Of a stretch of 64,000 bases of DNA, positions 14,905-54,953 are shown in pieces. The position numbers and the translations under genes are program-made. The notes under the pieces are model-generated. The model ran no database searches. It was not told the DNA's origin and saw only the letters and a list, made by a program, of their open reading frames with translations. The stretch spans positions 448,682-512,681 of the forward strand of contig CAWHBG010000001.1 of NCBI GenBank assembly GCA_963827565.1. The letters run 5' to 3'. How positions within the stretch are numbered: the first letter of the stretch is position 1; each line of letters starts with the position of its first letter. Source of the DNA: Candidatus Aminicenantes bacterium. GTDB lineage: Bacteria > Acidobacteriota > Aminicenantia > UBA2199.

Positions 14905-15928
14905 ATGAGGAAAGCAATTTTTTTTATTCTGATCACTTTAATTTTAATAACGGGGTGCAATGTGAAAAAATATAAGGATGACGGATTATATGCGGAAATA
15001 AGGACAAACGAAGGGGATGATAGTAGTAAAACTTGATTTTGATAAAGTCCCCATGACTGTGGCAAATTTTGCAGGTCTTGCGGAAGGGAAAATTCCCAAT
15101 TCGATTCAGAGATGATAGGAGAACCTTATTATGATGGGTTAAAATTTCCATAGAGTCATTAAGGATTTCATGATCCAGGGGGGAGACCCTCAGGGGAATG
15201 GTACAGGGAATCCCGGATACAGTTTCCCGGATGAATTCCATACTGATCTTAAGCATGACACCAGCGGGATACTTTCAATGGCAAATGCCGGGCCCGGGCA
15301 CAAACGGCAGTCAATTCTTTATTACACATCTGGCAACACCTCATCTGGATAACAAACATTCAGTTTTTGGGAAAGTTTATAAAGGAATTGATGTAGTAAA
15401 TCAGATTGCACAGGGAGATATAATAGAAAGCATAAGAATAGTAAAAGTTGGAAAAGAGGCGGAAGCATTTGATGCGCCGGCAGTTTTTAAAAAAATGACA
15501 GAAGAGAAGAAAATTATCATATGAATCAGAATTGAAAAGAAAGAATGGAAGAAGAGAGAAAAAATTATTGAAGATAAATGGCCGGGAAGAGTGACCACGG
15601 AATCAGGATTATGTATATAGTCCTCGAACGAAGGGAAAGGGAGATAAACCTAAAGTCAGGTGTAATGATCTCTGCACATTATACCGGAACATTCCTTGAC
15701 GGAAGAAAATTTGACAGCTCGGTTGACAAAGGGGACACCTCTGGAATTTCCTGTAGGTGTCGGGAAAGTTATTAAAGGTTGGGATGAGGCTCTGCTTGAT
15801 ATGAGAAAAGGGGAAAAAAGGGTCCTGATCATCCCATCCATCTGGCATATGGTGAACGTGGGGCAGGCGGAGTAATTCCTCCCCATGCGACTCTTGTTTT
15901 TCAGGTAGAACTGGTAGATATTAAATAG
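14905..15928 (+). pseudogene. lipoprotein peptidyl-prolyl isomerase with cyclophilin and FKBP domains in one frame (dual-family PPIase), multiply frameshifted
   Basis: GGAGGA RBS, then MRKAIFFILITLILITGC (lipobox). Cyclophilin pieces appear in three frames: [12 protein letters not shown] / [24 protein letters not shown] / YYDGLKF / [30 protein letters not shown] / [26 protein letters not shown]. After the TGA at 15522-15524 the same frame continues: IRIEKKEWKKREKIIEDKWPGRVTTESGL. FKBP pieces follow: [19 protein letters not shown] / [33 protein letters not shown] / [28 protein letters not shown]. Confidence 0.7.
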
Positions 15929-29721: not shown

Positions 29722-30740
29722 TTAATCTTTTATATTTTTCTTTTGGCTTCTTTCGATCTGGAGAGCCCTGACCTGAAGATAATGATTCCTGATAAACTTC
29801 TTATCCGGAGCGAGCCGGACCGCATTTTTAAGGGATTCAAGAGCCGGAACAATTTTATGCTGATTGATGTAAGCCAGACCCAGAACGTCGTAGGCATAAG
29901 CACAATTTGCGTCCAAACGGATGGCCTCAAGCGCATATGTTTCAGCCTCCCCGGGATTTCCTTCTCTGAGGCAGACCATTGCCAGGCTGTAAAGAGGATA
30001 AGGATCTTTTTTAAGAGATCCCCTTACCTTTTCCCATTGCTCTTTCGATCTTGTGAAATCAGTCCTACGGTAGTAGGCAGTGGCCAGATTGATGGAAGTG
30101 AGGGGGTCGTTTTTCAGGACGGGGAAAGGGAACGGCCTTTGAGCAGGAACAACTGCCATCATCCAGCGGGATCGATTCCGGCCCTTTCCCAGCTCCCAGA
30201 CCTTCATGAAATTTTTATATTTCATGGCACGACGACCACCAAAATACGGGTCGTGGAAAATGATCTGCTTTTTGTCATCATCAAACCCTATAACTACCCG
30301 GTAGTGGCCTTTTGCGATCTGTTTTATTGGTTTCGTAAGGACGATCACCGGGATGTCTTTCACCGATGACATCCTTTAATATCTGCATATTTCCCTGGAA
30401 AGAGTAGCTTTCGAAGCCATTTGGTCCGCGGATATAAAACCAGTTCGGAGTTATATGTTACCTGATTTCCGGAATCATAGATTTCATCTGTGATTTTCTG
30501 TTGGCTGAAGGATTGTGTTTTATCCCAGTAATTGAGGACCATTGCCAGACAGGCCGGGCCGCAATAATTTCTTTTCAGCCATTTTTCGGAGGGAACTGAA
30601 GGGATCAAATGTCCGGTTTCAGGGCTGACTTTTTTATATTTGAAAACCTGTGCGGAAAAAAGACACGATACCATCAGTGACAGGCCAGCGAGGAACACCC
30701 ATGCCTGTCTTATGTTTATAACATTACTCCGATCAAGCAA
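29722..30740 (-). pseudogene. C39-like (papain-fold) cysteine peptidase fused to TPR repeats, frameshifted
   Basis: ORF 30360..30740 carries a signal/TM segment and NYCGPACLAMVLNYWDK (Cys site). ORF 29722..30372 carries KGHYRVVIGFDDDKKQIIFHDPYFG (His site) followed by TPR repeats. Between them a third frame reads NGFESYSFQGNMQILKDVI, implying two frame changes within ~100 nt (30360-30450). Confidence 0.6.
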
Positions 30741-31398: not shown

Positions 31399-31488
31399 TT
31401 TGTTTTGGCCTCCCTTGCCAATAGTATTTCCTGATTTTAATTAATGTTCAGAAATTCGATAAATTGCTTTTTCGATACATACCATACT

Positions 31489-32364: not shown

Positions 32365-33830
32365 TTAAAGGGAAGATTTAATGTTGTATTTTTTAAGAAG
32401 CGTGTATAATCTTGATCGGGAAAGGCCGGAAACCCGGCAGGCCTCATTGATGTTTCCACGCACGGATGAGATCAGTACCTTAAAATATTGCTCCTCCGAT
32501 TCGGATATTACAGATCGGTGAAGTTCTTTTAATTTTGGAAGGGGGACATTTTGAATGGTGGTGGATAACCCGTTTTTATTCCCGTTCAATAACTTCTTGT
32601 GAACCCCGTTTCGTGCCACTTGTATACGAATATGCGTTGGAAGGTGTTTCGGGTAGAGTATCGGCTCTTCTTTTGCGGCAATCAGGCATTTTTCAATCGC
32701 CTGGATCAGTTCACGGACATTCCCCGGCCATTTATAATTCTTCATTACCTCCCAGAATTCAGGAGAAAAACCTTTCTGCGACTATTCCGAATCGGTCACA
32801 CAGTGTCTTCATATAGTGAACTGTTAAGTTCTTTAATATCGTCACGGCATTCCCTTAATGGAGGCAATTCGATAACCAGCGACCGGAGCCGGAAAAACAG
32901 ATCTTCGCGAAATAGTCCCTGCTGGACCATGTCCTCCAGATTCCGGTTGGTAGCCACCACCAATCTGAAATCACTGGTGACTTCTTTTTTTCCGCCCACG
33001 GGGCGGAAGCGGTGTTCCTGGATAACCCGGAGAAAGTTTTTTTGCAATGCCAACGGCAGTTCGCCGATTTCATCAAGAAAAAGAGTCCCTCCATCTGCCT
33101 GTTTTATCAACCCGTCCTGGCTGATGTAGGCATTGGTGAAAGCGCCCTTCACATGTCCGAAAAGGATGTTTTCAATCAGTGTTTCTGGTAGTGCAGTACA
33201 ATCTACAATAACAAAATTCCCGGAGCCCCTTGAGCTGTTAAGATGAATTGCTCTGGCAAACAGTTCTTTTCCTGTACCGGTTTCACCGGTAATAATAACA
33301 TTGAATGTGCTCTGTGCTGCCTGGCTGAGCATCTCAAAACTTAGAGTTGAGACGGTCCGAACTACCGATAATATCCTTTCTCTGCAAAGTCGTGTCCAGG
33401 GTTACCTGAGGCCTTTTCGGTCCTGATATTCAAGAACACGGGTCAGGTGAAGCTTTATACTTTCAAGCGAGGCAGGCTTTTCGATGTAATCCCATGCGCC
33501 GTTTTGGATGGCGAGTTCAGCCTCATCAGGATCACCAAACCCTGTGAATATAATTATTTCAGGGGAATATCCGGTTGCTTTTATTTTCGGCATGATGTCC
33601 AACCCACTTCCATCGGGCATATTAGCATCAAGAAATATAACACTATATGATTCCGACCGGGCTTTACTCAGGCCATCTGCCAGTGTATGTGCGCAGGAAG
33701 ATTTTTGTCCCATTTTGGTAACGGCATTTGCGACCCAATCGCACATTGATTGATCATCATCAATAATCAGAACATTGATCATTACTAATTTTCCTGATTT
33801 AATTTTATCAAATTTAATTTTATTGCTCAA
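32365..33830 (-). pseudogene. sigma-54-dependent response regulator (NtrC family), split into three ORFs
   Basis: REC domain in 33402..33830 (VLIIDDD..., FLDANMPDGSG, IEKP). AAA+ sigma-54 interaction domain in 32796..33332 (GETGTGKELFARAIH, GGTLFLDEIGELP, FREDLFFRL). C-terminal part in 32365..32745 (WPGNVRELIQAIE, and the HTH ACRVSGLSRSRLYTLLKKYNI). The frame breaks lie near 33335-33400 and 32745-32830. Confidence 0.8.
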
Positions 33831-38913: not shown

Positions 38914-38925
38914 GTTTCACCTCGA

Positions 38926-39828: not shown

Positions 39829-39830
39829 AC

Positions 39831-40358
39831 TTATCTCCTACCTTTCATCGGGTCTGCGGGTGCAGGTTCCGGTTTCATTTTTTTATACTTTGGTGAATGG
39901 GGATTATGACAATGAGCACACAGGAGGTACTTTTTCTTACCGTTCCAGAATCCGGTTCTCTTTCCGTGTGCACCATTTTTCCATTCTCTTAATTTTGGCC
40001 CGTGGCACTGGCCGCATAATTTATATGATTCTGTGAAATCTATCAATTTTCCATTTGCAAGATGGAGTTTATCCCGGTTCTTCATATCGTGACAGTCGAG
40101 GCACCATCTGTTCTTCTCATCATGCTTCAGGATTATGTCATCATGCATTTCCTCAAGTACCCTTCTCTCAGGATTCGGTTCCATATCACCATGACATTCT
40201 GTGCATGGGAATATATCCTCACTGAACGGGGGAGGAGGGACCTGAATCAGTTCGCTCTTCTCGGTACTCTCCTGGCCGTATACTCCTTGGGGAACGGTGA
40301 TCAGGATTAAAACTAAAATAATTAAAATTAAAAAATCATACTTTATGATTGTTCTCAT
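39831..40358 (-). CDS. periplasmic tetraheme c-type cytochrome (NrfB/Cbc-type partner)
   Basis: 175 aa with a signal peptide and four CXXCH motifs (CTECH, CLDCH, CGQCH, CAHCH). Its stop lies 2 nt before the FeS gene start. Confidence 0.85.
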   Translation of the reverse strand: MRTIIKYDFLILIILVLILITVPQGVYGQESTEKSELIQVPPPPFSEDIFPCTECHGDMEPNPERRVLEEMHDDIILKHDEKNRWCLDCHDMKNRDKLHLANGKLIDFTESYKLCGQCHGPKLREWKNGAHGKRTGFWNGKKKYLLCAHCHNPHSPKYKKMKPEPAPADPMKGRR

Positions 40359-40531: not shown

Positions 40532-42346
40532 TCAGATCTTTTTCTGATTCAGGTAAAAATATGATCCTGTTATGATCATTAATTCGATAATTATATATAT
40601 TACAAGTGCAGTTGCAACATTGGCTGAGAATCCGTAATTATGGAGTCCTACTCCAAGCAGATTCACGCCGAACCATGCCAGAACGACTGTGATTATGCCA
40701 ACGATCGATCCTAGTGAAAAGCCCAGTTCTTTTATCATTTTACCCAGTTTTGCATGGAAAAGTATTGCAGACCACAATATTATCAGAAGTGCTCCATTCT
40801 CTTTTGGATCCCAGCCCCAGAACCTTCCCCATGACTGATCTGCCCAGATCCCACCGAGTACTGTACCAATGAAGGTAAATATCAGCCCGAATGCCTGAGT
40901 AGCATAGATTGATTGATATGTATCCCTGAGAATTTCTTTTTTCTTCCCTTTTTTAAATATAGATTGAATAAGATATAAGTGTCCCAGAACTCCGGAAATA
41001 ACTATACCTCCGTAACCGATCGTTATTGTAATAACATGTGTGGCAAGCCAGAAATTTGAATCCAGAACTGCAACAAGCATGCCCATTGTGTCTCCCTCAA
41101 GAGCATACCTTCCGGATATTATAAGCAGGACCAGTCCGGAGAGACTCCCCGTAAGGATGCCGATATTTTTCTTTTTGAACAACTCAAGAGCGAGTCCGAG
41201 AATTACTGTTATCCAGGCGGCAAATACGAATGTTTCGAAAAGATTTGTTACCGGTGGCCTGTTCCTTATTATCATTCTTGCGATCATTCCGTATGTATGC
41301 GGGAGCAGTCCGAGGATCAGGAGGAAATAGCTTGAGTAATAAAAAAGCCTTTTAAATTTTATATAGGAAAAAAGGAGCAGAAGCAGGGAAAATCCGTAGA
41401 AGAACTGAGATTTATAAAATGGATCGATCCTGTTGTACATGATCTCTATTTTTATCTTTTCAGGATCAGTCAGGTTTTTAGAAATGCCGTTTATAAATTT
41501 ATTAAATTCTATAACACTGGAATCAAATTCTGATTGATTACCATTCCTGAATGAAGAGACCATTTTATTTATAAGGGATATATGCGGTGCAGAGGATTCA
41601 TCAAACTTAAATGATCTGTTAACCGAGTCCCATGGGCTCTCCCAATTTTCTTCCCCTGAGCTCATGTCGGGGATGATATCAAGCTGCTGATCCTGATAAT
41701 AACCTGACCATTGATCCATTTTATGAGAAATATTCAGGAGTTTCTGTTCAGGTTCTGTCAATGATTCGACGTCTTTTTCCTTGATTGATTTAATCTCTTT
41801 GATCTTATGAAGAAGATCAAGGAAGGTTTTCCCTTCAAAATCCTGACTTGGAAAACAGAATTGAAAGGAGCCTGCAAGCTTATGATAAACATAGATTTTA
41901 TTGTATAGAACGATAAGCTCACTCTCAACAATACTTCTTTTGGATCCCTCGATCCTTGATGCTTTAATTGCCAATTCCCTCAGTTTTTGAACGTGGTCTG
42001 ATAATTGTCTGTAGCTGTATCTGCCTCTGCCCTTTCCTGCATCGGAACCAATGGCACTCAGGGCTTCAGGATTATTGATCAGAAAAACCTTGTCATCATA
42101 ACTTTTCTCAGGTGTAAATATCAGCCTTGATAACCATATTATTGCAGCTTGTTTTTCCAGTTTACTTTTTCCGGATAATTGTTTGAGTATATTCCGGGAA
42201 AATGTGTCGATCGGTTTTTTCCTGCCGTCTTCAAGGATAACAATTTTTTTGAACTCATCTAGATTTAAAGAGGAACCCTGAATCACTGCGGATGATATAA
42301 AGAATAAAGTAATCGTTAATATTAAAATTTTCAATTTGAATTTCAT
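40532..42346 (-). CDS. ccsA: System II cytochrome c biogenesis protein CcsA/ResC with long N-terminal periplasmic extension
   Basis: 604 aa. It has the Trp-rich heme-handling motif WGRFWGWDPKENGALLIILW with flanking His residues, about 8 C-terminal TM helices, and a ~300-aa secreted N-terminal region. Confidence 0.85.
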   Translation of the reverse strand: MKFKLKILILTITLFFISSAVIQGSSLNLDEFKKIVILEDGRKKPIDTFSRNILKQLSGKSKLEKQAAIIWLSRLIFTPEKSYDDKVFLINNPEALSAIGSDAGKGRGRYSYRQLSDHVQKLRELAIKASRIEGSKRSIVESELIVLYNKIYVYHKLAGSFQFCFPSQDFEGKTFLDLLHKIKEIKSIKEKDVESLTEPEQKLLNISHKMDQWSGYYQDQQLDIIPDMSSGEENWESPWDSVNRSFKFDESSAPHISLINKMVSSFRNGNQSEFDSSVIEFNKFINGISKNLTDPEKIKIEIMYNRIDPFYKSQFFYGFSLLLLLFSYIKFKRLFYYSSYFLLILGLLPHTYGMIARMIIRNRPPVTNLFETFVFAAWITVILGLALELFKKKNIGILTGSLSGLVLLIISGRYALEGDTMGMLVAVLDSNFWLATHVITITIGYGGIVISGVLGHLYLIQSIFKKGKKKEILRDTYQSIYATQAFGLIFTFIGTVLGGIWADQSWGRFWGWDPKENGALLIILWSAILFHAKLGKMIKELGFSLGSIVGIITVVLAWFGVNLLGVGLHNYGFSANVATALVIYIIIELMIITGSYFYLNQKKI

Positions 42347-42347: not shown

Positions 42348-43484
42348 TTAGTTCCCTTTTTTTATCTCTGAGTTTTCTTTTCTCTTTCTGAACAACATTA
42401 ATATGAAATGGATCAATAAACCAAGAAAAACAACAATACTTGAAATATAAGGCAATAGCCTTCCCGAATTTTTCACAACTGCAAAAACAGAATATTCAAC
42501 TCCGGCAGGAGTGATATGATATCGGGATTGAAAGAATGTGTATTCTTTATATCTGAGAGGTTTGTTCATTGAAATTACAAGTTCTCTTTTAAGGTCTTCA
42601 TGCTTTATTTCGACTGTACTTTCATAACTTTTTACGATCTGTGAACCCGGATATTTTTTGATCCTAAAGTCTAAAAGCCCAACCTCGACCGGGAGTTTTT
42701 TTCTTAACTTCCTCAAAGAGAAATGATAATCACTTCCCAAAATCATAACATGAGTGGGTAATGTCTCTCCACCGTAAAGAATAATGTCCTTATTAATATC
42801 TTCAGAATATAGCATGATCCCGGGAACATTTTCTTCCGGTTCCGCCTCAGGCTGTCTCTCATCAATTGAGACGATCCCTGATGCATTCAGAACATTCTGT
42901 TTTGATGAACCCTCTTTATTTCTGAAAGCTGAAGCGTTCCGGAAAGATTTTTTAACATTAATCTTAATCGGAAAATCCGGAAATGAGATTGATTTATCCG
43001 GTTCTATATCTTTCAGATCAATGACAGAATAGTGCCTTACACCATCCTTGTCATTCCACACTGAGAGTTCCCATGCATGATAAGAATTTGACCACGAACT
43101 TTTTTCTCCCTCTTTCAGCATGAGGACGCTCTCTTCTGAAAAGAGGAAAGTAAAAAATCCCCCTATAAGAAGTATCAATATACCGATATGGGTAAGAATA
43201 TTACCTATGTTCTTAAATCTGAATCCGATCCTGAAGATCATGGAACTGATCAGGTTTAAAAACAGAACGGACATTGTAAGAGCCCCTCCAGGGATGGGAA
43301 TGAATCCCAAAGCAAGAAAAAACCATGAAGTGAAGAATTTTGCTTTTGCAGCATACAGGCCGTTATCGGTCTGATAAATCGTTCCCCATATAGTAAGAAC
43401 AGTTAGAACTATCAAACATATTACTGTCAATTTCAGCGAATAGCTGAATTTAATAAAGTTGTTTTTTTTTAGTTTGTTTAGCAT
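42348..43484 (-). CDS. ccsB: System II cytochrome c biogenesis protein ResB/CcsB
   Basis: 378 aa with the ResB-like topology and N-terminal pattern (SLKLTVICLIVLTVLTIWGTIYQ, NILTHIGILILLIGG, a large loop, then a C-terminal TM helix). It abuts ccsA. Confidence 0.7.
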   Translation of the reverse strand: MLNKLKKNNFIKFSYSLKLTVICLIVLTVLTIWGTIYQTDNGLYAAKAKFFTSWFFLALGFIPIPGGALTMSVLFLNLISSMIFRIGFRFKNIGNILTHIGILILLIGGFFTFLFSEESVLMLKEGEKSSWSNSYHAWELSVWNDKDGVRHYSVIDLKDIEPDKSISFPDFPIKINVKKSFRNASAFRNKEGSSKQNVLNASGIVSIDERQPEAEPEENVPGIMLYSEDINKDIILYGGETLPTHVMILGSDYHFSLRKLRKKLPVEVGLLDFRIKKYPGSQIVKSYESTVEIKHEDLKRELVISMNKPLRYKEYTFFQSRYHITPAGVEYSVFAVVKNSGRLLPYISSIVVFLGLLIHFILMLFRKRKENSEIKKGN

Positions 43485-44098
43485 TATTCTCCAGATTCGA
43501 TTGACTCTGATAATTTTAGTATCTTATCCCTATTATTCCTCAGAATTTCAGGATCTCCGGACATCTTAATGAAAAGTGTTTTTCCGGGGAAAGTGATCAT
43601 AGAAACAATTATAGAGAGATCAGACTCTTTACCGGTTATTTGTGTAAAATCAATAAAAATGCCTTCGTTATTACTTCTTGTTTTGAATTTTTTCTGTTTT
43701 GAGATAAATTCATCAATTTCAGATTCTGAAGGTTCCTTGTCTGCTATACTGGCAGACCACATCTGAACATTTGCCTTCAATCCTCCGGCATCCCCAGATA
43801 GGGGGATGATTGTGCACACGGCTTCTTTTTCGCCTGATTTGATAGAATAGGTCGCCAATCTTAGCTTGGATTCGGTTTTGATGCTTATCCAGCCGTCCGG
43901 AGTATCCCATTTAAGGTTTGTTTTAGTTGCCCCGGGGACATTCATACCGTGAGCATGTGTTGTTATTTCTGGTATATCCTTCTCAGCTATCTCCTCTTTA
44001 AATGAACGTACCTCATTCTTTTTCCCGCAGGAGATTGAAAAAATCACAAATGTTAATACTAATATAAAAATAACCGGTAAAGAGTACTTTGATCTCAT
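43484..44098 (-). CDS. hypothetical lipoprotein inside the cytochrome maturation operon
   Basis: 204 aa with a lipobox (FSISCGKK). Its TAA overlaps the ccsB ATG (TAATG). I recognise no family and there is no CXXC thioredoxin motif. Confidence 0.45.
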   Translation of the reverse strand: MRSKYSLPVIFILVLTFVIFSISCGKKNEVRSFKEEIAEKDIPEITTHAHGMNVPGATKTNLKWDTPDGWISIKTESKLRLATYSIKSGEKEAVCTIIPLSGDAGGLKANVQMWSASIADKEPSESEIDEFISKQKKFKTRSNNEGIFIDFTQITGKESDLSIIVSMITFPGKTLFIKMSGDPEILRNNRDKILKLSESIESGE

Positions 44099-44111
44099 TT
44101 AATTGCCTTTT

Positions 44112-44597
44112 TTACTTTCTGTAATTATGGTCTATCTTTTTGAAATACTCATCCTTTTTAAAAGGTTTTGCGGTATCACTTTTTTTCGGATCATGACAAG
44201 TAACACAAACCGCTTCAGTCGGCTCAATAAGTCCGGCTGCCATGGCTTTGGCTTTATCTTTCATGATGCTCATTTTTTTGTAGTCTGAACCCGGACCATG
44301 ACATGATTCACAGCCAACGCCCTCAAAGTTTACATTGTTAGGATCATCCAGCTTGTAACCGCCCTTGTTAAATGCTGTGGTATGACACTCAAGACACGCA
44401 GGATCTTTTTCCTTGCCGTCCTTCTTAAGACTTTCAAAAGCTTTTGAATGCTTTCTCTCCATCCATTTTTCAAACACATTACCTTTCTTTTCACCCTTGT
44501 GGCACATCTTACATTTCTTCGTACCGACATAATCAGCCGAAGTGACAAGAGAGAAAAGGAACAGAATCGCGATAAAAATCATTAACGTTTTTTTCAT
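44112..44597 (-). CDS. tetraheme cytochrome c (c554-like family)
   Basis: 161 aa with a signal peptide and four motifs (CKMCH, CLECH, CESCH, CVTCH). The layout YVGTKKCKMCH...W..KHSKAF...CLECH...GCESCHGPGS resembles the cytochrome c554 / c-prime family. Confidence 0.8.
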   Translation of the reverse strand: MKKTLMIFIAILFLFSLVTSADYVGTKKCKMCHKGEKKGNVFEKWMERKHSKAFESLKKDGKEKDPACLECHTTAFNKGGYKLDDPNNVNFEGVGCESCHGPGSDYKKMSIMKDKAKAMAAGLIEPTEAVCVTCHDPKKSDTAKPFKKDEYFKKIDHNYRK

Positions 44598-44630
44598 CTT
44601 ATCTCCTTTAAATTATTTAAACTTGATGAT

Positions 44631-44659
44631 TTTATAATTTATATCCTGAAAATTGTCAA
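44631..44659 (-). promoter_or_regulatory. candidate sigma-70 promoter of the c554-like/lipoprotein/ccsBA operon
   Basis: The minus strand reads TTGACA (44659-44654), a 17-nt spacer, then TATAAA (44636-44631). This is about 35 nt upstream of ATG 44597. Confidence 0.45.
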
Positions 44660-44737
44660 TAGCATATTTTTAACTTATTTTAATATCTGAACTTTTTTCC
44701 AATTCAGAAACCTTTCTCATATCTGCAAAAAGTGTTT

Positions 44738-46774
44738 TTAATGGAGCAGTTCAGATATCAGTTTTTCATACAATTCAGGATTATGTATTCCCTTGCTGCC
44801 GTCTTTTAAAAGTAGTTTATATAAATCATATACCCGGTTTCCGCTTTTGAGTTTCTCTTCTTCAATTTTTTTCTTCAGTTTATTCATCAACTCTGATGTT
44901 GAGTTAATCCACTCAACATGCATTTCTTCATAGTTCTCTTCATGACAATTGGAACATATTTCCTTTGTGGGCCTTACTATTTCATTACTCTCATTAACAT
45001 GACAATCGTTACATTCCACATCGTTTACCATAACATTCGGAATATTGAGAGTCAGGTGTTCCAGTTTCCCCTCATATATATTTTTCTGGATCTGATGACA
45101 ATCTGCGCATTCCTGTTTGCTCTCTTTTTTATGATGACAATCCATGCAATCATTTTTTCTGATTATCAATTGTCCATGGACAGCTTTATTCGAGTGACAA
45201 TTTCTGCAAGTTAATTTTTTTCCGTCAAGGTGTTTGTAATGAGGGAAATCCCATCCGAATATCTTCGCCGTTCTCAATTCGATCCCGGAATGGCAGTTAG
45301 AACATTCACCGGGAACAATATTTGTTTCCCGGTCAAATCTTGGAATGGATATCTGGTCAACTTTGTCCCCCAGACTTTTTCGAAGCATTTTAAATGACTG
45401 GTCAAGCAGCCTGTTTGCAAATGAAATATTGTGTATAGAATTTCCGAATTTAACCATTTTAAAATTAAACTCAGCATCTTCATATAACTTTTCAGAGCTT
45501 TTCCCTTTTTTTGTGTCTCTTATCGTTTTGATCTGCTTTTTAATAATTGGAAATATCTTTTCAAGCTGTGATATCTTTTTGTCAGTCTGGTTCTTCCAAT
45601 TCATTAGAATTTTATTGTATCCCTTCCCATGACATGGCTCACATGACTGGGAATTAGCTATCAGGGTGTCTCCCTTCTCCTCGAATGAAACAGAAAAATT
45701 ATGATGCTGATGACAGGCTTTACAATTGAGTCCCGATTCGAACATTGAACTGGGGTGATCCGGGACATTTTTCCCCCCTTTACCGGTAAACATCATCAAT
45801 TGAAGTTTATGCGGATCTGTGTGACATGAACTGCATTCGGGAATGATCTCTTCTGTCCTCGCTATCGATTTGTGCTGAATCTCAGTATGACATTGAATAC
45901 ATTCGATCTTATGATCAGTTATATGGTTCTTGTGCATGAGAACAGTATCATCGTACTGGTCTATTTTCTCCTGTTCTGCATGGCAATTATTACATCTGTT
46001 CCTCGGAACGGCTCCGTCACCGACGATCATTTCCCCATGACATTTATAACAACTTACTTTTCTTGCGAGAATGTCAGTATGATCATATTTTATCTCTTCA
46101 CTGTTATTCTCTCCTTTAACCGGAGGCGTATGGCATTTTGTACATTTTGAAATAACCTCCATTTCACTTTTAATACCTTTAAAATGGCAAAGGAAACATG
46201 ATGTTTCGGTTACTGACAGATGTGAACCCTGTACGATCTGTGAATGGCAGCTTGTACATCTTAATTGTTTTTCACGTCTCAGTCCCTCAAGATGAGGAGC
46301 ATGATCGAATATGATATTTTTTTTGAACTTTACTTTACCCTGGAGATTTCTTGTTTCATGACAGCCGCTTCTGAGGCAGCTTGCATCCGATATCTCTGCC
46401 CAGGGTTTGCTCTTTTTATAAACTCCGGTGAAATAGTTCACTACCATCGATGCTGCAGTTAATTTGCCTTTTAATTTATTTTTCAATCCGGGGGGAAAAT
46501 GGCAGTCTGTGCAAGTAACATCTTTATGAGAAGAATTAGCCCAGCTTTCATAATAGGGCTGCATGAAATGGCATGTAGAACAGAAACCCGGCCGGGATGT
46601 AATTTCCAGTGAAATTGATCCGAGAATGAGAAAGATTGCAGTGGTAACTGTTATGGCAACTATCAGCCGCTTCCAACCCGGTCCCCAGACGAGTTTATGA
46701 AGTGAAACAATGTTTCTCCTGATCAGCCGGAATATTTTAGCAATGCCTTTAAATGGTTTCAATAAGTTTTTCAT
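44738..46774 (-). CDS. NapC/NirT-type membrane-anchored multiheme cytochrome c (17 CXXCH + 1 CX4CH)
   Basis: ATG 46774 (AGAGGG RBS) is preferred over the TTG at 46795. An N-terminal TM helix is followed by the NapC/NirT signature FCSTCHFMQPYYESWANSSHKDVTCTDCHFPPG. I counted 17 CXXCH motifs plus CLRSGCH. Two NrfA/ONR-like helical segments are present (NSIHNISFANRLL, SKGIHNPELYEKLI). Confidence 0.85.
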   Translation of the reverse strand: MKNLLKPFKGIAKIFRLIRRNIVSLHKLVWGPGWKRLIVAITVTTAIFLILGSISLEITSRPGFCSTCHFMQPYYESWANSSHKDVTCTDCHFPPGLKNKLKGKLTAASMVVNYFTGVYKKSKPWAEISDASCLRSGCHETRNLQGKVKFKKNIIFDHAPHLEGLRREKQLRCTSCHSQIVQGSHLSVTETSCFLCHFKGIKSEMEVISKCTKCHTPPVKGENNSEEIKYDHTDILARKVSCYKCHGEMIVGDGAVPRNRCNNCHAEQEKIDQYDDTVLMHKNHITDHKIECIQCHTEIQHKSIARTEEIIPECSSCHTDPHKLQLMMFTGKGGKNVPDHPSSMFESGLNCKACHQHHNFSVSFEEKGDTLIANSQSCEPCHGKGYNKILMNWKNQTDKKISQLEKIFPIIKKQIKTIRDTKKGKSSEKLYEDAEFNFKMVKFGNSIHNISFANRLLDQSFKMLRKSLGDKVDQISIPRFDRETNIVPGECSNCHSGIELRTAKIFGWDFPHYKHLDGKKLTCRNCHSNKAVHGQLIIRKNDCMDCHHKKESKQECADCHQIQKNIYEGKLEHLTLNIPNVMVNDVECNDCHVNESNEIVRPTKEICSNCHEENYEEMHVEWINSTSELMNKLKKKIEEEKLKSGNRVYDLYKLLLKDGSKGIHNPELYEKLISELLH

Positions 46775-47063
46775 GTTGCCCTCTTTTTTGATCAAAAATG
46801 TTTATTTCTTTTGATTATAGGAATAGAAAAAAAAAAGTAAAATTAAATAAGACCGAAAGGGTTAAATAAAAACATTTATTTTTTATTGAAATGTGACTTT
46901 TAATATGTTAAATTTTTTTTAAACAATTTAAATCATTGCAATTTGAAAATGATTATATAAATTGTTTGTGTCAATTCCTTGAGCGAAGGGATGTTTAATG
47001 ATTAATTCAGGTTAGTTTAAATTAAAGATTTAAATATAATTCAGGTTAAAACCTGAAAGATTA

Positions 47064-49265
47064 TTGAAGGAGTTGGCATTGATTAAAAAAGCAAACTTAA
47101 TTTTATTATCATTTTTTCTTCTATTAATCCCACTTTGTTTGATCTCTGCGGATAACAATGAATGCATGGAATGCCATTCGGATGAAAGCCTCACTACAAT
47201 GAGGGGTGGAAGAGTTATTAAATTGTTTGTTGATATAAAAGTTCATAATAAATCAATTCATAAAGATCAGGAATGTGTCAATTGCCATGAAGAAGCGGAT
47301 GTTGAAGAATTCCCTCACGAAGAGAGGCTTACACCTGTTAACTGCGGAAATTGTCATGACAAACCCCAGGAAGAGTTTGATCGGGGTATTCACGGGAAAT
47401 TTCTGAAGACAAATCATTTGTATGCGCCAACATGTACTGAATGTCACGGAAAACATAATGTTGCGAGTGTCACTGATCCTGAATCGCCATCGTTTAGAAT
47501 GAATGTCCCTTATCTCTGTGGCAAATGTCACAGGGAGGGAGCTCCTGTTGCCAGGATCTATAAAATAAATGAAAGGAACATTATAGAAAATTACAGCCAG
47601 AGTATTCATGGGGAAGGATTATTCAAGAAGGGATTGTCAGTGTCAGCGACATGTGTTGATTGCCATAGCAGCCATAAAGTTCTTCCCCATACCGATCGCG
47701 AATCATCAATTCATCCGAATAACATTGCTTCAACTTGTATGCAGTGTCATACCAGGATAGAAGATGTTCATAAACAGGTTATCGAGAACAAAAAATGGGA
47801 GAAGAGCAAGGGGGCTATTCCTGCCTGTACTGACTGTCATCTTCCTCACAAAGTAAGAAAAGAATCAATTGTACTCCGGGTTTCTGATAAGGCATGTCTG
47901 AAATGTCATGAAGATGAAAATCTAAGTATGATGAAGGATGGCGAAAAGGTGTCACTCCATATAAATAAAGAAGACATTAAATCTTCGGTTCACATGGAAG
48001 TGACATGTGTAAAATGCCATTCTGATGTAAATCCGATGCTGAATAGGCCCTGTCAGACCGCTAATGAAGTTGACTGTACCAGCTGTCATATCAGTACAGG
48101 CGAAGAGTATAACAATTCCGGCCATGGAATGGCAAAAAAAAACATGGCGGAAGATGCACCGGATTGCGTAACCTGTCATGGCACCCACACGATCCAATCC
48201 CATCGTGATGATTCATCTCCTATCTATAAAACAAATATCCCTTCACTCTGTGGTGATTGTCATAAAAAGGACTCTAAAGTTAAACGGGTACATGAGTTAT
48301 CTCAAAAGGAAGTTATAAATAATTATTCACATAGTATACATGGGCAGAAGCTGACCGGGAAGGGATTTCTGGTCAGTGCATCCTGCACGGATTGTCACAA
48401 TAAACATTATATCCTCAGCAGCAAAGATGAGAAATCTTCTACTAACATCAAAAATGTTCAGGCTACATGTTCAACCTGCCATAGAGGCATATACAACGAT
48501 TACATAAAAAGTATCCATTTTACTTCCGAGCAATACAGGAAAGAGGACAGGCCAACCTGTATCACTTGTCATTCCGCACATACGATAAAGGATATTACCA
48601 AGGATCAGTTCATGACGGAGGTGACCGACCATTGCGGAGAATGTCACAAAAAATTGTCTGAAACATATCTCGATACGGTTCACGGAAAAACCTATCAGCT
48701 TGGTTATTTAAAATCAGCAAAGTGTTCAGACTGTCACAATGCCCACCTGATCCTCCCTACCAATGATCCCGATTCAAGTGTCGGTATGAACAATATTGTG
48801 AATACCTGCCAGAAGTGTCATGAAGATGCAAATGAGAGGTTTACTGGATATCTGACACATGCAACCCATCATGACAGGAAAAAATTTCCGATCCTCTATT
48901 ACACATACTGGGCGATGACATTACTTCTTATAAGTGTTTTTACATTTTTCGGAATTCATACTTTATTGTGGTTCCCTAGATCATACAAGAATATGAAGTT
49001 CAGAAAGAAACAGGCTCACGGACATGATGAGGTTTATGTTCAGCGGTTTGAATTATCTCAACGGCTGACCCATTTGTTCGTCATCCTCAGTTTTCTTGCC
49101 CTTGCATTTACCGGCCTGATCCTGAAATTTTCCTTCATGCCATGGGCGGCATTTTTTGCGAGTATAATAGGGGGGGTCCATAACGCAGGTTTATACACAG
49201 GTTTGCGGCCACTTGTAACCTTCGGTTATTTTTTCTTCCACGTATTTCAATTTGATAAGCCTTAA
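47064..49265 (+). CDS. 19-heme cytochrome c fused to the first helices of a b-type cytochrome membrane domain
   Basis: 733 aa with a signal peptide. I counted 19 CXXCH motifs, then TM helices (YWAMTLLLISVFTFFGIHTLLWF; LTHLFVILSFLALAFTGLILKF). The start codon is uncertain: TTG 47064, or the TTG ~15 nt later placed after GAAGGAG. The ORF ends prematurely and continues in other frames; see 49377..49859. Confidence 0.85.
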   Translation: MKELALIKKANLILLSFFLLLIPLCLISADNNECMECHSDESLTTMRGGRVIKLFVDIKVHNKSIHKDQECVNCHEEADVEEFPHEERLTPVNCGNCHDKPQEEFDRGIHGKFLKTNHLYAPTCTECHGKHNVASVTDPESPSFRMNVPYLCGKCHREGAPVARIYKINERNIIENYSQSIHGEGLFKKGLSVSATCVDCHSSHKVLPHTDRESSIHPNNIASTCMQCHTRIEDVHKQVIENKKWEKSKGAIPACTDCHLPHKVRKESIVLRVSDKACLKCHEDENLSMMKDGEKVSLHINKEDIKSSVHMEVTCVKCHSDVNPMLNRPCQTANEVDCTSCHISTGEEYNNSGHGMAKKNMAEDAPDCVTCHGTHTIQSHRDDSSPIYKTNIPSLCGDCHKKDSKVKRVHELSQKEVINNYSHSIHGQKLTGKGFLVSASCTDCHNKHYILSSKDEKSSTNIKNVQATCSTCHRGIYNDYIKSIHFTSEQYRKEDRPTCITCHSAHTIKDITKDQFMTEVTDHCGECHKKLSETYLDTVHGKTYQLGYLKSAKCSDCHNAHLILPTNDPDSSVGMNNIVNTCQKCHEDANERFTGYLTHATHHDRKKFPILYYTYWAMTLLLISVFTFFGIHTLLWFPRSYKNMKFRKKQAHGHDEVYVQRFELSQRLTHLFVILSFLALAFTGLILKFSFMPWAAFFASIIGGVHNAGLYTGLRPLVTFGYFFFHVFQFDKP

Positions 49266-49376
49266 AATAAAAACGAAAACACCGGTCTTCAAATTCATTT
49301 TCAGTAAGAATGGAATGATGTTCAACATAAAAGGACCTGAAGGATTTCTGGGGATCACTGAAGTGGTTTCTAGGAC

Positions 49377-49859
49377 TTGGGAAAAGGTCCGGAGTACGGT
49401 AAATGGACATATTGGGAAAAATTTGATTACTTTGCAGTGTTCTGGGGTGTTGCTGTTATCGGTATATCAGGGCTTATCTTGTGGTTCCCGGAATTTTTCA
49501 CAAAGATCATTCCCGGATGGGCAATAAATGTTGCAATGATAATCCATTCTGATGAAGCACTTCTTGCGATAGGATTTATATTTACAATACATTTTTTCAA
49601 TACCCATCTGAGGCCGGAGTCCTTCCCGATGGATAAAGTCATATTTACCGGACTTGTTCCTCTTCAAGAATACAAGAATGACAGACCGGAAGAGTATAAG
49701 AGGCTGGTGGAATCAGGTGAACTTGAGAGTAAACTGGTGAAACATAATGCATTTAAGAAATATAATAGATTCGTTACCTTTATGGGAATGACTTTTCTTA
49801 TTATCGGACTGGCTTTAACAGCACTTATCATATATTCAATGCTTTTCGGATATAAATAG
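49377..49859 (+). CDS. C-terminal part of the b-type cytochrome domain (FdnI/HydC-like), detached from 47064..49265 by frameshifts
   Basis: It reads GKWTYWEKFDYFAVFWGVAVIGISGLILWFPEFF...IIHSDEALLAIGFIFTIHFFNTHLRPESFPMD. Between 49190 and 49385 the reading frame hops: FFFHV / ISLKIKTKT..FIFSKNGMMFNIK / DFWGSLKWFLGLGK / GPEYGKWTYWEKF. Confidence 0.65.
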   Translation: MGKGPEYGKWTYWEKFDYFAVFWGVAVIGISGLILWFPEFFTKIIPGWAINVAMIIHSDEALLAIGFIFTIHFFNTHLRPESFPMDKVIFTGLVPLQEYKNDRPEEYKRLVESGELESKLVKHNAFKKYNRFVTFMGMTFLIIGLALTALIIYSMLFGYK

Positions 49860-49947
49860 TCCGGTTAAAATTATGAAGTATTTTTAGGTTAAAATTGAAT
49901 AGAATTTTAAATTTTCCTGTGGGAATTAAATATGGATAAAAACGGAT

Positions 49948-50271
49948 TTATTCGTCTCTTAAAAATTCTGTTTTATTTTCAGAAAGTTTAAGGACAAATT
50001 TTGACATATTTTCAATAATCTTCAATAAACTGATATCTGCAAGTGAATAGAATGCAAAAACTCCGTCCTTTGTTTTATTAAGAACGCCCATTTTAAAAAG
50101 GGCATTTAGATGATTAGAGAGACTGCTTGTGGATAATTGTGTTTTTTCCTGAAGTTCTGATACATTCATCTTGCTTTTGCCGATGAGGTCAATTATCAGA
50201 AGTCTTGAAGGTTTTGTGATGACCTGACATACCATTGAATATTGTTCGTAGAATTTAATATTGCGTGCCAT
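49948..50271 (-). CDS. ArsR/SmtB-family transcriptional regulator
   Basis: 107 aa. The wHTH pattern is PSRLLIIDLIGKSKMNVSELQEKTQLSTSSLSNHLNALFKMGVL. Confidence 0.8.
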   Translation of the reverse strand: MARNIKFYEQYSMVCQVITKPSRLLIIDLIGKSKMNVSELQEKTQLSTSSLSNHLNALFKMGVLNKTKDGVFAFYSLADISLLKIIENMSKFVLKLSENKTEFLRDE

Positions 50272-50419
50272 TTAACGATATTTTAATAAAAAACATTTAA
50301 AAAGTCAAAACTATTGAACTCTAAAATTAAGAAATTATACGTATTAACAAATAATTGTTATTAAAGTTGAAATATTAATAGGTAATAAGTTAGATTATTG
50401 AGGAGTATTGGAGTGGGAC

Positions 50420-50890
50420 ATGAAAAAATTAATTGAGATTTATACTGATGGCGCATGTTCCGGGAATCAGTTCCGGAATAATACCGGCGGATGGGGAGCG
50501 ATATTGATATCGCCGGGGAAAAGAAAAAAGAGATATTCGGTGGAGAGAAAAGGATACGACAAACAACAGAATGGAATTGACCGCATGCATCATGGGCTCT
50601 GCGTGAATTGAAAAGAGATGATTCTGTTATCAAAATGTATTCCGATAGTGCTTATATTGTAAATTGCATCAATAATAAATGGTATGTCAAATGGGAAAAG
50701 AACGGTTGGAAAACAACTAAAAAAGAACCGGTGGAGAATAGAGATCTATGGGAAGAATTGCTGGCCTTTGGTAAAAAAGTACAATATTGAGTTTATCAAA
50801 GTTAAAGGACACTCCGGAATTGAATTAAACGAAAGGGCGGATGAACTTGCAAATAAGGGAATGGAGTTCAATTTAATAAATCGAAATTGA
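50420..50890 (+). pseudogene. rnhA: ribonuclease HI, multiply frameshifted
   Basis: Pieces appear in three frames: MKKLIEIYTDGACSGN..GGWGAIL / DTTNNRMELTACIMG / ALRELKRDDSVIKMYSDSAYIVNCINNKWYVKWEKNGWKTTKKEPVENRDLWEELL / YNIEFIKVKGHSGIELNERADELANKG. All RNase HI catalytic motifs (DGA, TNNRMEL, SDS, NERAD) are recognisable. Confidence 0.75.
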
Positions 50891-50939
50891 AAAATATTTC
50901 ACCTTGTAGTGTTATAAATCATGCTATAATATGAAATAC

Positions 50940-51013
<74 letters not shown>

Positions 51014-51034
51014 TTTCCTTTCCAGTGAAAATAA

Positions 51035-51891
51035 ATGTTCAGATCAATACTTTCATAAAAGAATTGATAGAATAATTAAAAAATCCGAAACGATAAATAT
51101 TGATGAAAATTCCCGTATTATTATATTAAGTGATATGTCATCGCGGGCATGGGGACAGATCTGATGATTTCTTTCATAATCAGAATGTATACATCAATGC
51201 TCTAAAGCATTATATAAAAAAAGGATATACTTATATTGAGCTTGGAGATGGGGATGAGTTGTGGGAGAATGCAAATTTCAGGCTTATAAGTGAACGGTAC
51301 AGGATCATCTATCAGATGTTCGATGAACTTCACAGCAAAAACAGGTTCCGGTTCATTTGGGGAAATCACAACAGAAGATGGAAAAATAAATTTCTCTTTA
51401 ACAAACAATTTGGAGGAGTAATAGATGAACAAAGCGGGCTTGAAGTTAAACTACTTGAAGGCCTGAAAGCTGAGGAAGCGATAGTTTTACGGTTCAATAA
51501 AGATAAATAAGAAAGAAATTCTCCTTAATTCATGGACATCAGGGGGAGATACTTAATGATACTCTGTGGTGGTTCGGCAGGTTTTTTGTAAGAGTGTTCT
51601 GGAAGTTTTATCCAGATGAGGTTTGGTGTAGCAGACCCGACAAGTCCTGCAAGAAATTTCAGAATCAGAAAAAAAATAGACCTGAGGTTCATAGATGTTG
51701 CTGAGAAACAGAAAAAGGGAGTTATTATCGGACATACTCATTTTCCGGTTTTCCCTGATCCCGGGGATGTCCCGTATTTTAATGACGGAAGCTGTGTACA
51801 TCCGAGATGTATTACAGGAATAGAGATAAAAAGCGGGAGTATTGAACTTGTTAAATGGTTTTATTACTCAGAATGGTTCAGGATATCTTAA
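51035..51891 (+). pseudogene. calcineurin-like metallophosphoesterase, multiply frameshifted
   Basis: Fragments: SRIIILSD / HRGHGDRSDDFFHNQ...YIELGDGDELWEN...FIWGNHN / LIHGHQG-like piece / VIIGHTHFPVF...PYFNDGSCVHPRCITGIEIKSGSIELVKW. The canonical D..H, GD, GNH, H and GHTH motifs are all present but spread across frames. The start is approximate. Confidence 0.55.
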
Positions 51892-52004
51892 ACTTAAGAC
51901 GGGAAATAATATCGGGCCCTTCAAAAATAGAGGAATTGTTAAAATTTTCAGATTGATTTTTTATAATTGTAGTTTAGCCTAATATTTTATGTTATAATTT
52001 TACC

Positions 52005-53333
52005 ATGGACAGAAGAAACTTCATAAAAAATTCAATATTACTTTCGTCAGGACTTGGATTATCATATTGTGGAGCGGGTTCCAATGATGATAAAATCAAG
52101 GTTGTTATTCTCGGGTTTGACGGTGCAGGGATGGGCGACCATTGATCCTTTAATAGAAAAGGGAAAACTTCCTTATCTCAAAAAGTTCAGAGACAATAGT
52201 GCCTGGGGTGATTTTAAAACAATCAAACCTACAAAATCCAATGTGGTATGGACAAGTATTGCAACGGGAAAACAATGCTGAAACATGGAATTATGGATTT
52301 CTCATATCTAAAAAAGAATGGTATCAAAGTCCCTTTTACAAAATCACAAAGGAGGGAACCGGCTATCTGGCAGATCCTTACATCCTACAATAAAAGCAAT
52401 GCGGTAATTAACTGGTGGGTGTCTCATCCTCCGGATAAGGTTAAAGGTGTGATGCTTTCTGATCATTTCAGAAGATTTGCTCAGAATAGAGTAAATAAAG
52501 ATGCACTTGATTCCTACTGTTCATCCGCCCTCATATTTTAAGAAGCTTGGAGCATTTGGCGACAGAGAATAAAAATTATAGAAAAGTTCTTAAAAGAATG
52601 GGCCTCCCGGATTTTTTCAACAATACAATAAAACACATCCGGGTAAAAATGCGGCAAAGGTACCGGTTCTTGGAATTTATAAAAGGCTTGATCAAACATG
52701 ATGAATGGTTGAAACAGCATCGAGATATATCAGGGATAATTTGGAAACAGATTTTTTTGCGACATATTTCAGACTGCCGGATATAACACAGCATTTCATC
52801 ACCCATTTCATGGATAAGGAATTTAAGACCAAATTAAAAGCTGCATATAAAGATGGAGTATTAAATCCGGAAATTTCAGAAGAAGCAACGAAAGGGTTTC
52901 AGATCTTATGTTTCCGATATACAGATTTATGGAGAAGGTAATAAAGGAATATGTTGAATCTGAAAAAGGGAAGAATACATATTTTATGGTAATGTCAGAT
53001 CACGGATTTTCTTTTTACGATGGTGGTTATAATCATTATAATCTACCTGGATACAATGCCGGCTCCCGAGGGGATATTCTTAATGCATGGCCCGAAAGTA
53101 AGGTCCGGGAAACTTGAAGATGTGGGTGTTTATGACGTAGCTCCCACTGTACTTAATCTTTTTGATCTTCCCATAGGAAAAAACATGGATGGGAAAGTTC
53201 TGAAGAGTGCACTAAAATAAACAACAGGATCAGATATAAAGAGTATAAAATGAAGAAATACAATGATGGGAAAATCGATGAGAACTTCCAGAGAGAAGAA
53301 CTTGAAGAACTGAAATCGATTGGGTACATTTAG
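52005..53333 (+). pseudogene. alkaline-phosphatase-superfamily enzyme (type I phosphodiesterase / nucleotide pyrophosphatase-like), multiply frameshifted
   Basis: It begins with a Tat-like signal and lipobox (MDRRNFIKNSILLSSGLGLSYCGAG). Fragments spread over at least six ORFs in three frames: VVILGFDGA, TIDPLIEKGKLPYLKKF, KPTKSNVVWTSIATGK, YFMVMSDHGFSF, GIFLMHGPKV, YDVAPTVLNLFDLPIGKNMDGKVL, and a terminal ELKSIGYI*. Confidence 0.6.
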
Positions 53334-53387
53334 GAATTTGTCTGTTTCCCAAATTGAATTCCCGTTTGTATCTGATATAATTTTTTC

Positions 53388-54953
53388 ATGAGAAATATAA
53401 TATTATCAATTTTTCTGATTGCTTTTTTTACTTCCATGTATCTCTGCCGGAGATAAGGTTTATTCAAAAAATTATGAAATTAAAGGGAAAGCTGGCAAAA
53501 CTTGAGGTTGAATCCGAACCCTCTGGGTACAGATGTAATTCTTGATACCGGTATCAAAAAGAACCTCAGTTATTTTACTCCCGGTGAAAATCTCTTTCCG
53601 AAAATGTTTGTAAATGAAAATGACTATTCTGTCACATGGATAAATTATAAAAAGGGTGATGTAAAACTGAGTTTTTATGATTCTTTCAGTGAATATGGAA
53701 GAGTTGTTGTTTCAGAAAGATTTGATTTTGTTTCAAGTGATACATCTGTCATATTTGATAGAGAGAAACCGAGGTTTATTGTGTTCCGGGCAATAAAAGG
53801 CAATGATAATGAAGATGTTTTTATACATGATCTAAAAAAGGGGAGAACGATCCGCATTGCTGAAACTGATGGAAATGAAAAAGAAATAATTATTGATGAT
53901 AACAAATTGAGTGGGAGAAGTTCATTTGTTCTGAAAACCTATACACTTGATCATGAATATACTTATGTTGTAAAAAAAGCTAACATCAAAATTATCCTCA
54001 AAGATGATCACCAGATCACCAGAGGGGCAATGCCGGAAAAACCAAATTTCTCTTCCGAAGAGCTCAATACAATCGTAGGCTTTGGAGACAGTATAACCTG
54101 GGGAAAGATGCGGATGTATAACCTGTTCGATTTATATCATCCCGAGCTGACTTATTGGGCAAAAACATCCGAGTATTTTAATGAAAATTACGGCCAGACC
54201 TATACCATTAACCTTGGAGTGAACAGGGATAGCTCATTGCAGGGTTTACAGAGAATGGATGAAGAACTCCGTTATCAGAAAGGGTATTTTCTCCTTGTAT
54301 TGTTTGGAACAAATGATGTTACCAGCGGATCGTCTTCTTCTACGAGTACATCTCAAAACATTCTGCAGATCCTGAAAAAGGGAAGAGATGATTATGGGAT
54401 GTTCCCTGTTGTATCTACTGTTCCTCCTCAGAAACTATACCTTTCGGGAATTCAATTTTACAAGGATGAGACAGAAAAACTGAACGAAAAAATAATTGCT
54501 TTGGCAAATGCCAATGATTTCCAATATATAGATACTTATAATGCTTTTTTTAACCAAACGGAAGGATGGGAAGCTATGCTTGAGGATATAAAAGGAAACC
54601 ATCCAAGCCCTTCCGGCCATCAGGTTATGGCAGATATGGTTATACCCATAATCCTGGAACACGCTCCTGGGATACCATCAGATGTAAGTTCTTTATCAGG
54701 AACAAGAGGAAGCTCTTTTAATATCAGTTGTACTGAGAACAAAGAGTTTGACTTCGATTATTACAATGTTAAATTTGGATTTTCTCCTTCTTTACTTAAC
54801 AGAGAAATGAAAAGTTCATCGAATGTTTTTTCAGTATATTTTTATCCGTTTAACCTGAGTCAGAGAAAGAAAGTATATTTTAAGATGCAGGCAATTGACA
54901 AGGATGGAAATGCAAGCAGTTTCACACAGACATATTCAGTATCATTAAATTAA
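53388..54953 (+). CDS. SGNH/GDSL-family hydrolase lipoprotein with N-terminal beta-rich domain (5' end frameshifted)
   Basis: The main ORF is 53502..54953. It has IVGFGDSITWG (GDS block), FGTNDV and GNHPSPSGH. Upstream, ATG 53388 encodes MRNIILSIFLIAFFTSMYLC (lipobox). That piece is joined to the main ORF only through 2-3 frame changes (53440-53530). Confidence 0.7.

Follow-up and report, generated by a model that had tools for sequence, protein, structure and literature searches.

A 19-heme cytochrome gene in two open reading frames

We analysed a 64,000-nucleotide stretch of the genome of a Candidatus Aminicenantes bacterium (assembly GCA_963827565.1, contig CAWHBG010000001.1), here called the window, to whose positions all coordinates refer unless stated otherwise. 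Its subject is a gene for a multiheme cytochrome c fused to a diheme cytochrome b, which in the assembled sequence is split over two open reading frames (ORFs). We consider it very likely that these are parts of one gene of about 925 codons, encoding a bc-type cytochrome of the CbcL/MtrH/MtoC family, and that the five changes of frame within it are consensus errors of the assembly and not mutations.

The first ORF (47064..49265, + strand, 733 amino acids, aa) contains 19 CXXCH motifs at residues 34 to 582 and then runs on into two hydrophobic helices. Motif count and hydropathy agree with the original prediction, made from the letters of the window alone, that 19 such motifs and transmembrane helices share one ORF. 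The second ORF (49377..49859, + strand, 160 aa) has a possible TTG start, carries IIHSDEALLAIGFIFTIHFFNTH, and weakly matches PF01292 and models of the formate dehydrogenase gamma subunit. It encodes b-domain helices 4–6, so that the remainder of an FdnI-like cytochrome b does follow the frame changes, as had been proposed. Both ORFs lie in one frame, and the net shift is therefore zero. Between them, frame-by-frame translation compared with the homologs shows that conserved family sequence can be read in succession in the other frames.

With five one-base repairs the gene encodes 930 aa from a TTG at 47064 or 925 aa from a TTG at 47079. The latter is the likely true start because a Shine-Dalgarno sequence, AAGGAG, precedes it at 47067-47072; the 925-aa homologs and the public 728-aa call for the first fragment (P0275) agree. 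The repaired protein aligns without gaps to its relatives P0001 (89.3% identity), P0003 (89.8%) and P0276-P0278 (about 89.7%; 925-aa proteins). The features of the gene are as follows.

47079..49859, + strand: whole 19-heme c/diheme b fusion gene (gap-free repaired translation against intact homologs; Shine-Dalgarno sequence)
47079..47150, + strand: N-terminal signal peptide with the hydrophobic core ANLILLSFFLLLIPLCLIS, then A/DNNE, the presumed cleavage site (hydropathy peak 2.48, residues 10-28)
47163..48821, + strand: periplasmic c-type domain with 19 CXXCH motifs (motif count; Pfam matches to Cytochrome_C7, c3_2 and Paired_CXXCH)
48885..48974, + strand: transmembrane helix 1, the linker after the c domain (hydropathy; helix 604-645 in the AlphaFold2, AF2, model of P0001)
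49065..49130, + strand: transmembrane helix 2 with the His codon 49071-49073, equivalent to FdnI His18 (hhalign to E. coli FdnI; His invariant in 52 sequences)
49186..49388, + strand: helix 3 and the following loop, with five one-base indels and the His codon CAC 49196-49198, equivalent to FdnI His57 (nucleotide alignments)
49377..49859, + strand: second ORF, b-domain helices 4-6, with His codons 49545 and 49590, equivalent to FdnI His155 and His169

Five one-base breaks within the b domain

To call indels, the gene was aligned at the nucleotide level first with its closest long relative alone (79% identity) and then in a set of six sequences including five intact relatives. The pairwise alignment shows no indel over 47064-49185, followed by five one-base indels, and the six-sequence alignment shows all five to be private to the window. 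One base is missing at about 49186-49193, and surplus bases are found at about 49209, 49244-49251, 49328 and 49388. The intact homologs read ...GGVHNAGLIHRFAALVTFGYFFFH.FNLI....KTP.F.FIFSKNGMMFN.KDL.DFWGSLKWFLGLGKRP.YGKWTYWEKFDY... in this region. The codon for the second heme-ligand His (49196-49198) is out of frame in the assembled ORF.

The original prediction had described the breaks as single-base insertions at the junction of the c and b domains. All five do involve one base, and four are insertions, but the one at about 49186-49193 is a deletion. The junction itself lies at about 48.83-48.89 kb, and the breaks follow some 300 nucleotides downstream, inside the b domain. The example given, GGGAAAAGGTCC, also has to be amended: the relatives read Lys-Arg-Pro here (AAR AGR CCN), so that the surplus base is the T after AGG and not an A.

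The membrane domain resembles FdnI

A profile of 52 family members was compared with E. coli FdnI by hhalign, giving a probability of 89% and an E-value of 2.2e-6. The alignment places FdnI H18, H57, H155 and H169 opposite histidines present in all 52 sequences. We take these four FdnI residues to be the b-heme ligands in the structure 1KQF (Jormakka et al. 2002). Their counterparts in the window are the codons at 49071, 49196, 49545 and 49590, corresponding to residues 670, 712, 827 and 842 of the repaired protein. By profile alignment, then, the full set of four b-heme His ligands, which the original prediction had singled out as a check, is present.

Structural comparison points the same way. 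The AF2 model of P0001 has an FdnI-like helical fold, and its best match among PDB structures, found by Foldseek, is FdnI (1KQF_C, E 6.6e-5, target-normalised TM-score 0.77), followed by the hydrogenase-1 cytochrome b HyaC (4GD3_A). Six C-terminal membrane helices, FdnI's four flanked by one more on either side, are indicated both by the hydropathy of the repaired protein and by the P0001 model. A precomputed PF01292 match is recorded for most intact homologs. With phmmer, the b domain matched no PDB sequence.

The c domain is related to that of CbcL and contains a duplicated 8-heme module

Geobacter CbcL (GSU0274, 619 aa) carries nine CXXCH motifs within the N-terminal half of its sequence, together with six transmembrane helices resembling the diheme cytochromes b HydC and FdnI (PMC6295460, PMC9129911). 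Both sources uphold the statement in the original prediction that CbcL has nine c hemes. Its assignment of the window protein to the CbcL architecture is likewise borne out, with a periplasmic multiheme c domain preceding a six-helix FdnI-like diheme b domain. The repaired protein is 34-37.5% identical over about 615-660 aa (E 1e-114 to 1e-119) to P0196, P0195 and P0167, 9-heme proteins counted as CbcL-type by their length and heme spacing; the comparison was made with these three and not with GSU0274 itself.

A survey of CbcL/MtrH/MtoC homologs described proteins from 15 phyla that are 416-1034 residues long, contain 3-23 CXXCH motifs as well as conserved histidines, and mostly have six helices (PMC6295460). 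The window protein has 19 motifs in its N-terminal domain, six C-terminal helices, full-length homology to CbcL-type proteins and the conserved membrane-domain histidines as candidate b-heme ligands. It departs from CbcL sensu stricto, for which nine hemes, a length of about 615-620 aa and a Desulfuromonadales-type spacing are characteristic. Judged by its sequence, it is a member of the CbcL/MtrH/MtoC family, yet no ortholog of CbcL proper.

The 11-heme representative P0125 (689 aa) aligns twice with the repaired protein, at 47% identity with residues 274-926, which comprise the last 11 hemes and the b domain, and at 32% with residues 11-405. Motifs 2-9 and 10-17 form a tandemly duplicated 8-heme module with a constant offset of about 244 aa, and the c domain is similar to itself with an E-value of 1.9e-43. 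The double alignment, the constant offset and the self-similarity together indicate that the 19-heme domain corresponds to an 11-heme form plus a tandem 8-heme copy.

An indel-dense patch in the assembly

The frame hops are peculiar neither to this gene nor to a c/b junction. They are the first five of 28 frame-breaking indels in a 4.3-kb patch, which was mapped by gene-by-gene alignment with the close relative L001 (GCA_942492175.1), syntenic with the window over 42-59 kb. The patch covers the 3' part of the cytochrome gene and then four further genes.

49186..53529, no strand assigned: indel-dense assembly patch, 28 frame-breaking indels (22 insertions, 6 deletions; gene-by-gene alignment)
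about 50417-50870: RNase H, Pfam match split over three frames
about 51036-51956: 304-aa gene, frameshifted
52005-53333: phosphodiesterase (442 aa, type I phosphodiesterase/sulfatase-like), frameshifted

In the fourth gene, for a GDSL lipase, the indels are confined to the first 140 nucleotides at the 5' end. The indels of the patch, random in position and biased to insertions, number about one per 155 bases over 4.3 kb, and the flanks (43.1-49.19 kb and 53.53-56.5 kb) contain no frame-breaking indels. An ArsR gene (49948..50271, − strand) sits within the patch and is free of indels.

A homopolymer-type (nanopore-like) error model was considered and rejected, as only 8 of the 28 indels are adjacent to a homopolymer.

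Two similar stretches occur elsewhere in the window. One, at approximately 14600-16600, splits the genes for a cyclophilin and an FKBP; the other, on the − strand at 29700-33830 (about 30.3-33.4 kb), splits those for an NtrC-type regulator and a C39-like peptidase.

15170..15352 and 15198..15524, + strand: cyclophilin gene in two frames (Pro_isomerase profile positions 50-107 and 90-156)
15578..15775 and 15696..15875: FKBP gene, split
33402..33830 (receiver), 32796..33332 (AAA+) and 32365..32745 (lid and helix-turn-helix), − strand: NtrC-type sigma-54 regulator in three ORFs
30360..30740 and 29722..30372, − strand: C39-like peptidase/TPR protein in two ORFs

Assembly error or real mutation

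The most serious alternative, which we regard as distinctly unlikely, is that the frameshifts are real, the cytochrome gene in its 3' part and the four genes downstream being recent pseudogenes in a decaying stretch. The deposited record of the genome does contain the gene as the same two fragments, P0275 (728 aa) and P0285 (160 aa), with the indels standing in the assembly, and an intact, independent copy from the same strain did not turn up. The substitutions tell against decay. In a three-taxon comparison of the window, L001 and L002, lineage-specific changes were counted by codon position, and the patch showed no excess of window-specific substitutions over the sister lineage. Substitutions private to the window keep a third-position bias as strong as elsewhere, and do so in all genes of the patch. 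For the phosphodiesterase, the changes at the three codon positions number 10/9/59 in the window and 18/9/73 in the sister; for RNase H they number 4/4/20 and 8/3/19. Neither mark of relaxed selection, an excess of lineage-specific substitutions or a lost third-position bias, is thus seen. Since neutral decay would add far more substitutions than indels, 28 indels without any such excess make it unlikely.

The indels themselves also have the wrong character for decay. Bacterial mutation is deletion-biased, as Mira, Ochman and Moran reportedly described in 2001, and in the patch insertions outnumber deletions by 3.7:1. The housekeeping gene for RNase H is broken as well, the edges of the patch are sharp and independent of gene limits, and the similar patches elsewhere in the window break the genes for cyclophilin, FKBP and the NtrC-type regulator.

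We also asked whether the two ORFs could be two separate functional proteins, a two-helix-anchored 19-heme cytochrome and a three-helix half of a cytochrome b, which appears very improbable. Both ORFs are long and open, and the second has its possible TTG start. In the first, however, the tail (GLYTGLRP...FQFDKP) stands in place of the invariant IHRFAA, so that one heme ligand is lost; conserved family sequence can still be read, in the other two frames, from the roughly 110 nucleotides that separate the ORFs; and such a split is found in none of the 120 best homologs. Programmed ribosomal frameshifting or recoding, which would suit the zero net shift and the common frame of the ORFs, is effectively refuted by the alignment: it would require five shifts (one −1 and four +1) within 200 nucleotides, no site is conserved, all relatives are simply in frame, and the same kind of indel is scattered through four unrelated genes downstream.

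Some further evidence concerns the quality of the record. An independent short-read contig from Logan (L081, ERR11523668_4439577) matches window positions 44094-46883 at 100% over 2,790 bases. This identity shows the record to be accurate in its clean parts and run ERR11523668 to contain the same strain. The contig came from an exact look-up of window proteins for an independent assembly, in which only the c554-like protein gave a same-strain contig (2.8 kb, within the clean region); CcsA, ArsR and P0275 were not on record. An exact-pattern scan of Joint Genome Institute (JGI) metagenome contigs across two of the indel sites gave no match. A homolog search with the repaired b domain for identities of at least 97% found none, the best being 79%, and the members of the three closest 90% clusters included no intact copy from the same strain.

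Several points, besides the two fragments in the deposited record, weigh against a single intact gene of this family and function. Neither reads nor an independent same-strain assembly of 49.19-53.53 kb was found, and the explanation by assembly error is for that reason inferential. The P0001 model has only moderate confidence (mean pLDDT 67.8; about 70-83 in the membrane domain), and the window fragment scores 20.9 bits against PF01292, below the Pfam threshold of 30.1. The function of the 19-heme subgroup is, moreover, argued by analogy with Geobacter CbcL and E. coli FdnI.

Taken together, we infer strongly, but do not demonstrate, that the simplest account is a mosaic assembly with kilobase-scale stretches that were never corrected. 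As the original prediction had suggested might be the case, the organism very probably has an intact gene; the indels also extend over four neighbouring genes. Pseudogene and split-gene calls in the regions 49.19-53.53 kb, about 14.6-16.6 kb and about 30.3-33.4 kb deserve distrust.

A typical member of a large family

Homologs were searched with the repaired protein among clusters at 90% identity, and more than 4,700 clusters matched at E ≤ 1e-10. Among the best 120 homologs, lengths range from 896 to 953 aa and identities from 57 to 89%, and most have multiheme Pfam matches and PF01292. Exactly 19 CXXCH motifs are present in 118 of the 120; the other two have 18, the start having been called inside the first motif. 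The original prediction had implied that so large a heme number is unusual; the 19-heme form is instead the norm in a very large family.

The nearest relatives in reference genomes are metagenome-assembled genomes of Candidatus Aminicenantes, at 88-90% identity. Further members come from Calditrichaceae, Prolixibacteraceae and other Bacteroidales, KSB1, Ignavibacteria, Melioribacteraceae, Kapaibacteria, Gemmatimonadota, Omnitrophota and Planctomycetota; in the last of these the 19 motifs are kept even at about 40% identity. A HMMER search with the second ORF of the window matched 1,674 clusters at 50% identity (E ≤ 0.001), and in the longer matches the b domain is joined to c domains of 5 to 22 motifs, most commonly 9 and 11.

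Many members with 913-951 aa and 19 motifs are listed in Table S2 of PMC6295460 (Zhong & Shi 2018). One of them, KKN60529.1 (924 aa), has its motifs 1-10 at 28, 65, 88, 118, 146, 191, 219, 249, 272 and 309, and its motifs 11-19 at 332, 362, 390, 434, 462, 492, 517, 547 and 575 (PMC6295460). The window protein shows the same series shifted by +6/+7 residues. From this common spacing it follows that the 19-heme form was already catalogued as a CbcL-family homolog in 2018, and that survey is the only literature on the 19-heme subgroup that we found. The window protein is accordingly typical of a known, very common family.

Gene neighbourhood

Upstream of the 19-heme gene and divergent from it lies a series of genes on the opposite strand.

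44738..46795, − strand: 685-aa NapC/NirT-type membrane cytochrome (NapC/NirT/NrfH-like N-terminus), 17 CXXCH and 1 CX4CH
44112-44597, − strand: c554-like tetraheme cytochrome
43484-44098, − strand: 204-aa lipoprotein-like protein
42348-43484, − strand: ResB, System II cytochrome c maturation
40532-42346, − strand: CcsA, System II cytochrome c maturation
37687-40358, − strand: NrfD-like membrane protein (408 aa), 4Fe-4S protein (300 aa) and 175-aa tetraheme cytochrome

The NapC/NirT-type cytochrome gene, which is syntenic in Aminicenantes relatives, may encode another quinol dehydrogenase of this cluster, one very rich in heme. The NrfD-like, 4Fe-4S and tetraheme proteins next to ccsA/resB constitute a putative third quinone-interacting module.

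In L001, a two-component system absent from the window lies between the c554-like gene and the NapC-type cytochrome. The ResB gene of L001 is annotated in two parts (165 and 148 aa, at its positions 1515-2650), compared with an intact 378 aa in the window; the L001 assembly may have a frameshift of its own in this gene.

Neighbours were surveyed at 78 loci of the 19-heme gene in other genomes, with these frequencies.

c554-like gene: 34-36 of 78 loci
protein of about 500 aa with a NapC/NirT region and six hemes (ImcH-like in layout): 28 of 78 loci
separate cytochrome b561: 25 of 78 loci
ResB/CcsA: about 22 of 78 loci
DUF5777 membrane beta-barrel: 18 of 78 loci
c552-like pentaheme protein: 16 of 78 loci

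The context fits a role in electron transfer from the quinol pool to the periplasm. A recurrent neighbourhood is seen within about 0-8 kb on either side of the 19-heme gene at loci L007-L030 and other loci from Bacteroidales. Downstream are the ImcH-like six-heme protein of about 500 aa, the c554-like tetraheme cytochrome and a fused ResB-CcsA; upstream are cytochrome b561, the DUF5777 beta-barrel, the c552-like pentaheme protein and a Crp-type regulator.

Far from this cluster, at 3343-11596, the window contains an 811-aa DNA polymerase III alpha ORF whose N-terminal part is apparently missing: its Pfam match starts from position 21 of the NTPase-domain profile, at residue 266. Two tandem genes for Ser/Thr protein kinases of about 940 aa follow.

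Proposed function

By analogy we predict heme binding, quinol oxidation and a direction of electron flow for the 19-heme protein. A Sec signal peptide would export the 19-heme c-type domain to the periplasm, and the C-terminal six-helix domain of FdnI fold would bind two b hemes via the four histidines. Menaquinol would be oxidised near the b heme on the cytoplasmic side, by analogy with FdnI and with what has been proposed for CbcL (bioRxiv 10.1101/2022.08.31.506072). Electrons would then pass through the membrane by way of the two b hemes and on along the c-heme chain, reaching periplasmic acceptors, and reverse flow, as proposed for MtoC, would be possible. The chain itself may have arisen from the 11-heme form by tandem duplication of the 8-heme module.

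A bolder proposal is that the 19-heme subgroup, which keeps 57-60% identity across distant phyla, is functionally distinct from CbcL and that its duplicated 8-heme module could form a heme wire anchored in the inner membrane and long enough to extend over much of the periplasm. We consider this doubtful; the 19-heme chain may simply be a longer version of CbcL. If the proposal were true, the wire would hand electrons straight to partners in the periplasm or outer membrane, with no need of soluble shuttles like PpcA, and would represent a common respiratory module in Aminicenantes, Bacteroidales, Calditrichota, Ignavibacteria and Planctomycetota.

The window gene as such is one more copy of a family surveyed in 2018 and present in thousands of metagenomic sequences, and its biological weight is small. 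The subgroup, being abundant, highly conserved and placed beside other quinol-dehydrogenase-like cytochromes, is therefore a reasonable target for studies of electron export in uncultured anaerobes.

Comparison with known systems

E. coli FdnI (1KQF chain C) shares with the b domain four core helices and the four heme-ligand histidines. It is a separate subunit of 217 aa fed by an iron–sulphur subunit, whereas the b domain described here is fused to a multiheme c domain and is flanked by an additional helix on either side; the two sequences are about 20% identical. Geobacter CbcL has 9 c hemes compared with 19 here, and the spacing of its last hemes (...43, 28) differs from that of the window protein (...25, 30, 28), which is shared by the 11-heme forms and by those of MtoC/MtrH type. 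Only in Geobacter has CbcL been shown to act in low-potential extracellular electron transfer (PMC9129911). The 11-heme members, such as Oter_2603 of Opitutus terrae (729 aa) and P0125, are without the extra N-terminal 8-heme module.

The closest correspondence is with the 19-heme homologs of Table S2 (KKN60529.1, PKP08298.1, BAX79136.1, OGV21847.1 and MAF27600.1). These have the same length class, motif count and spacing, six transmembrane segments at matching relative positions, and come from the same phyla as found here. From them the window protein shows no difference of substance: its copy is from Aminicenantes and is broken by what are very likely assembly indels.

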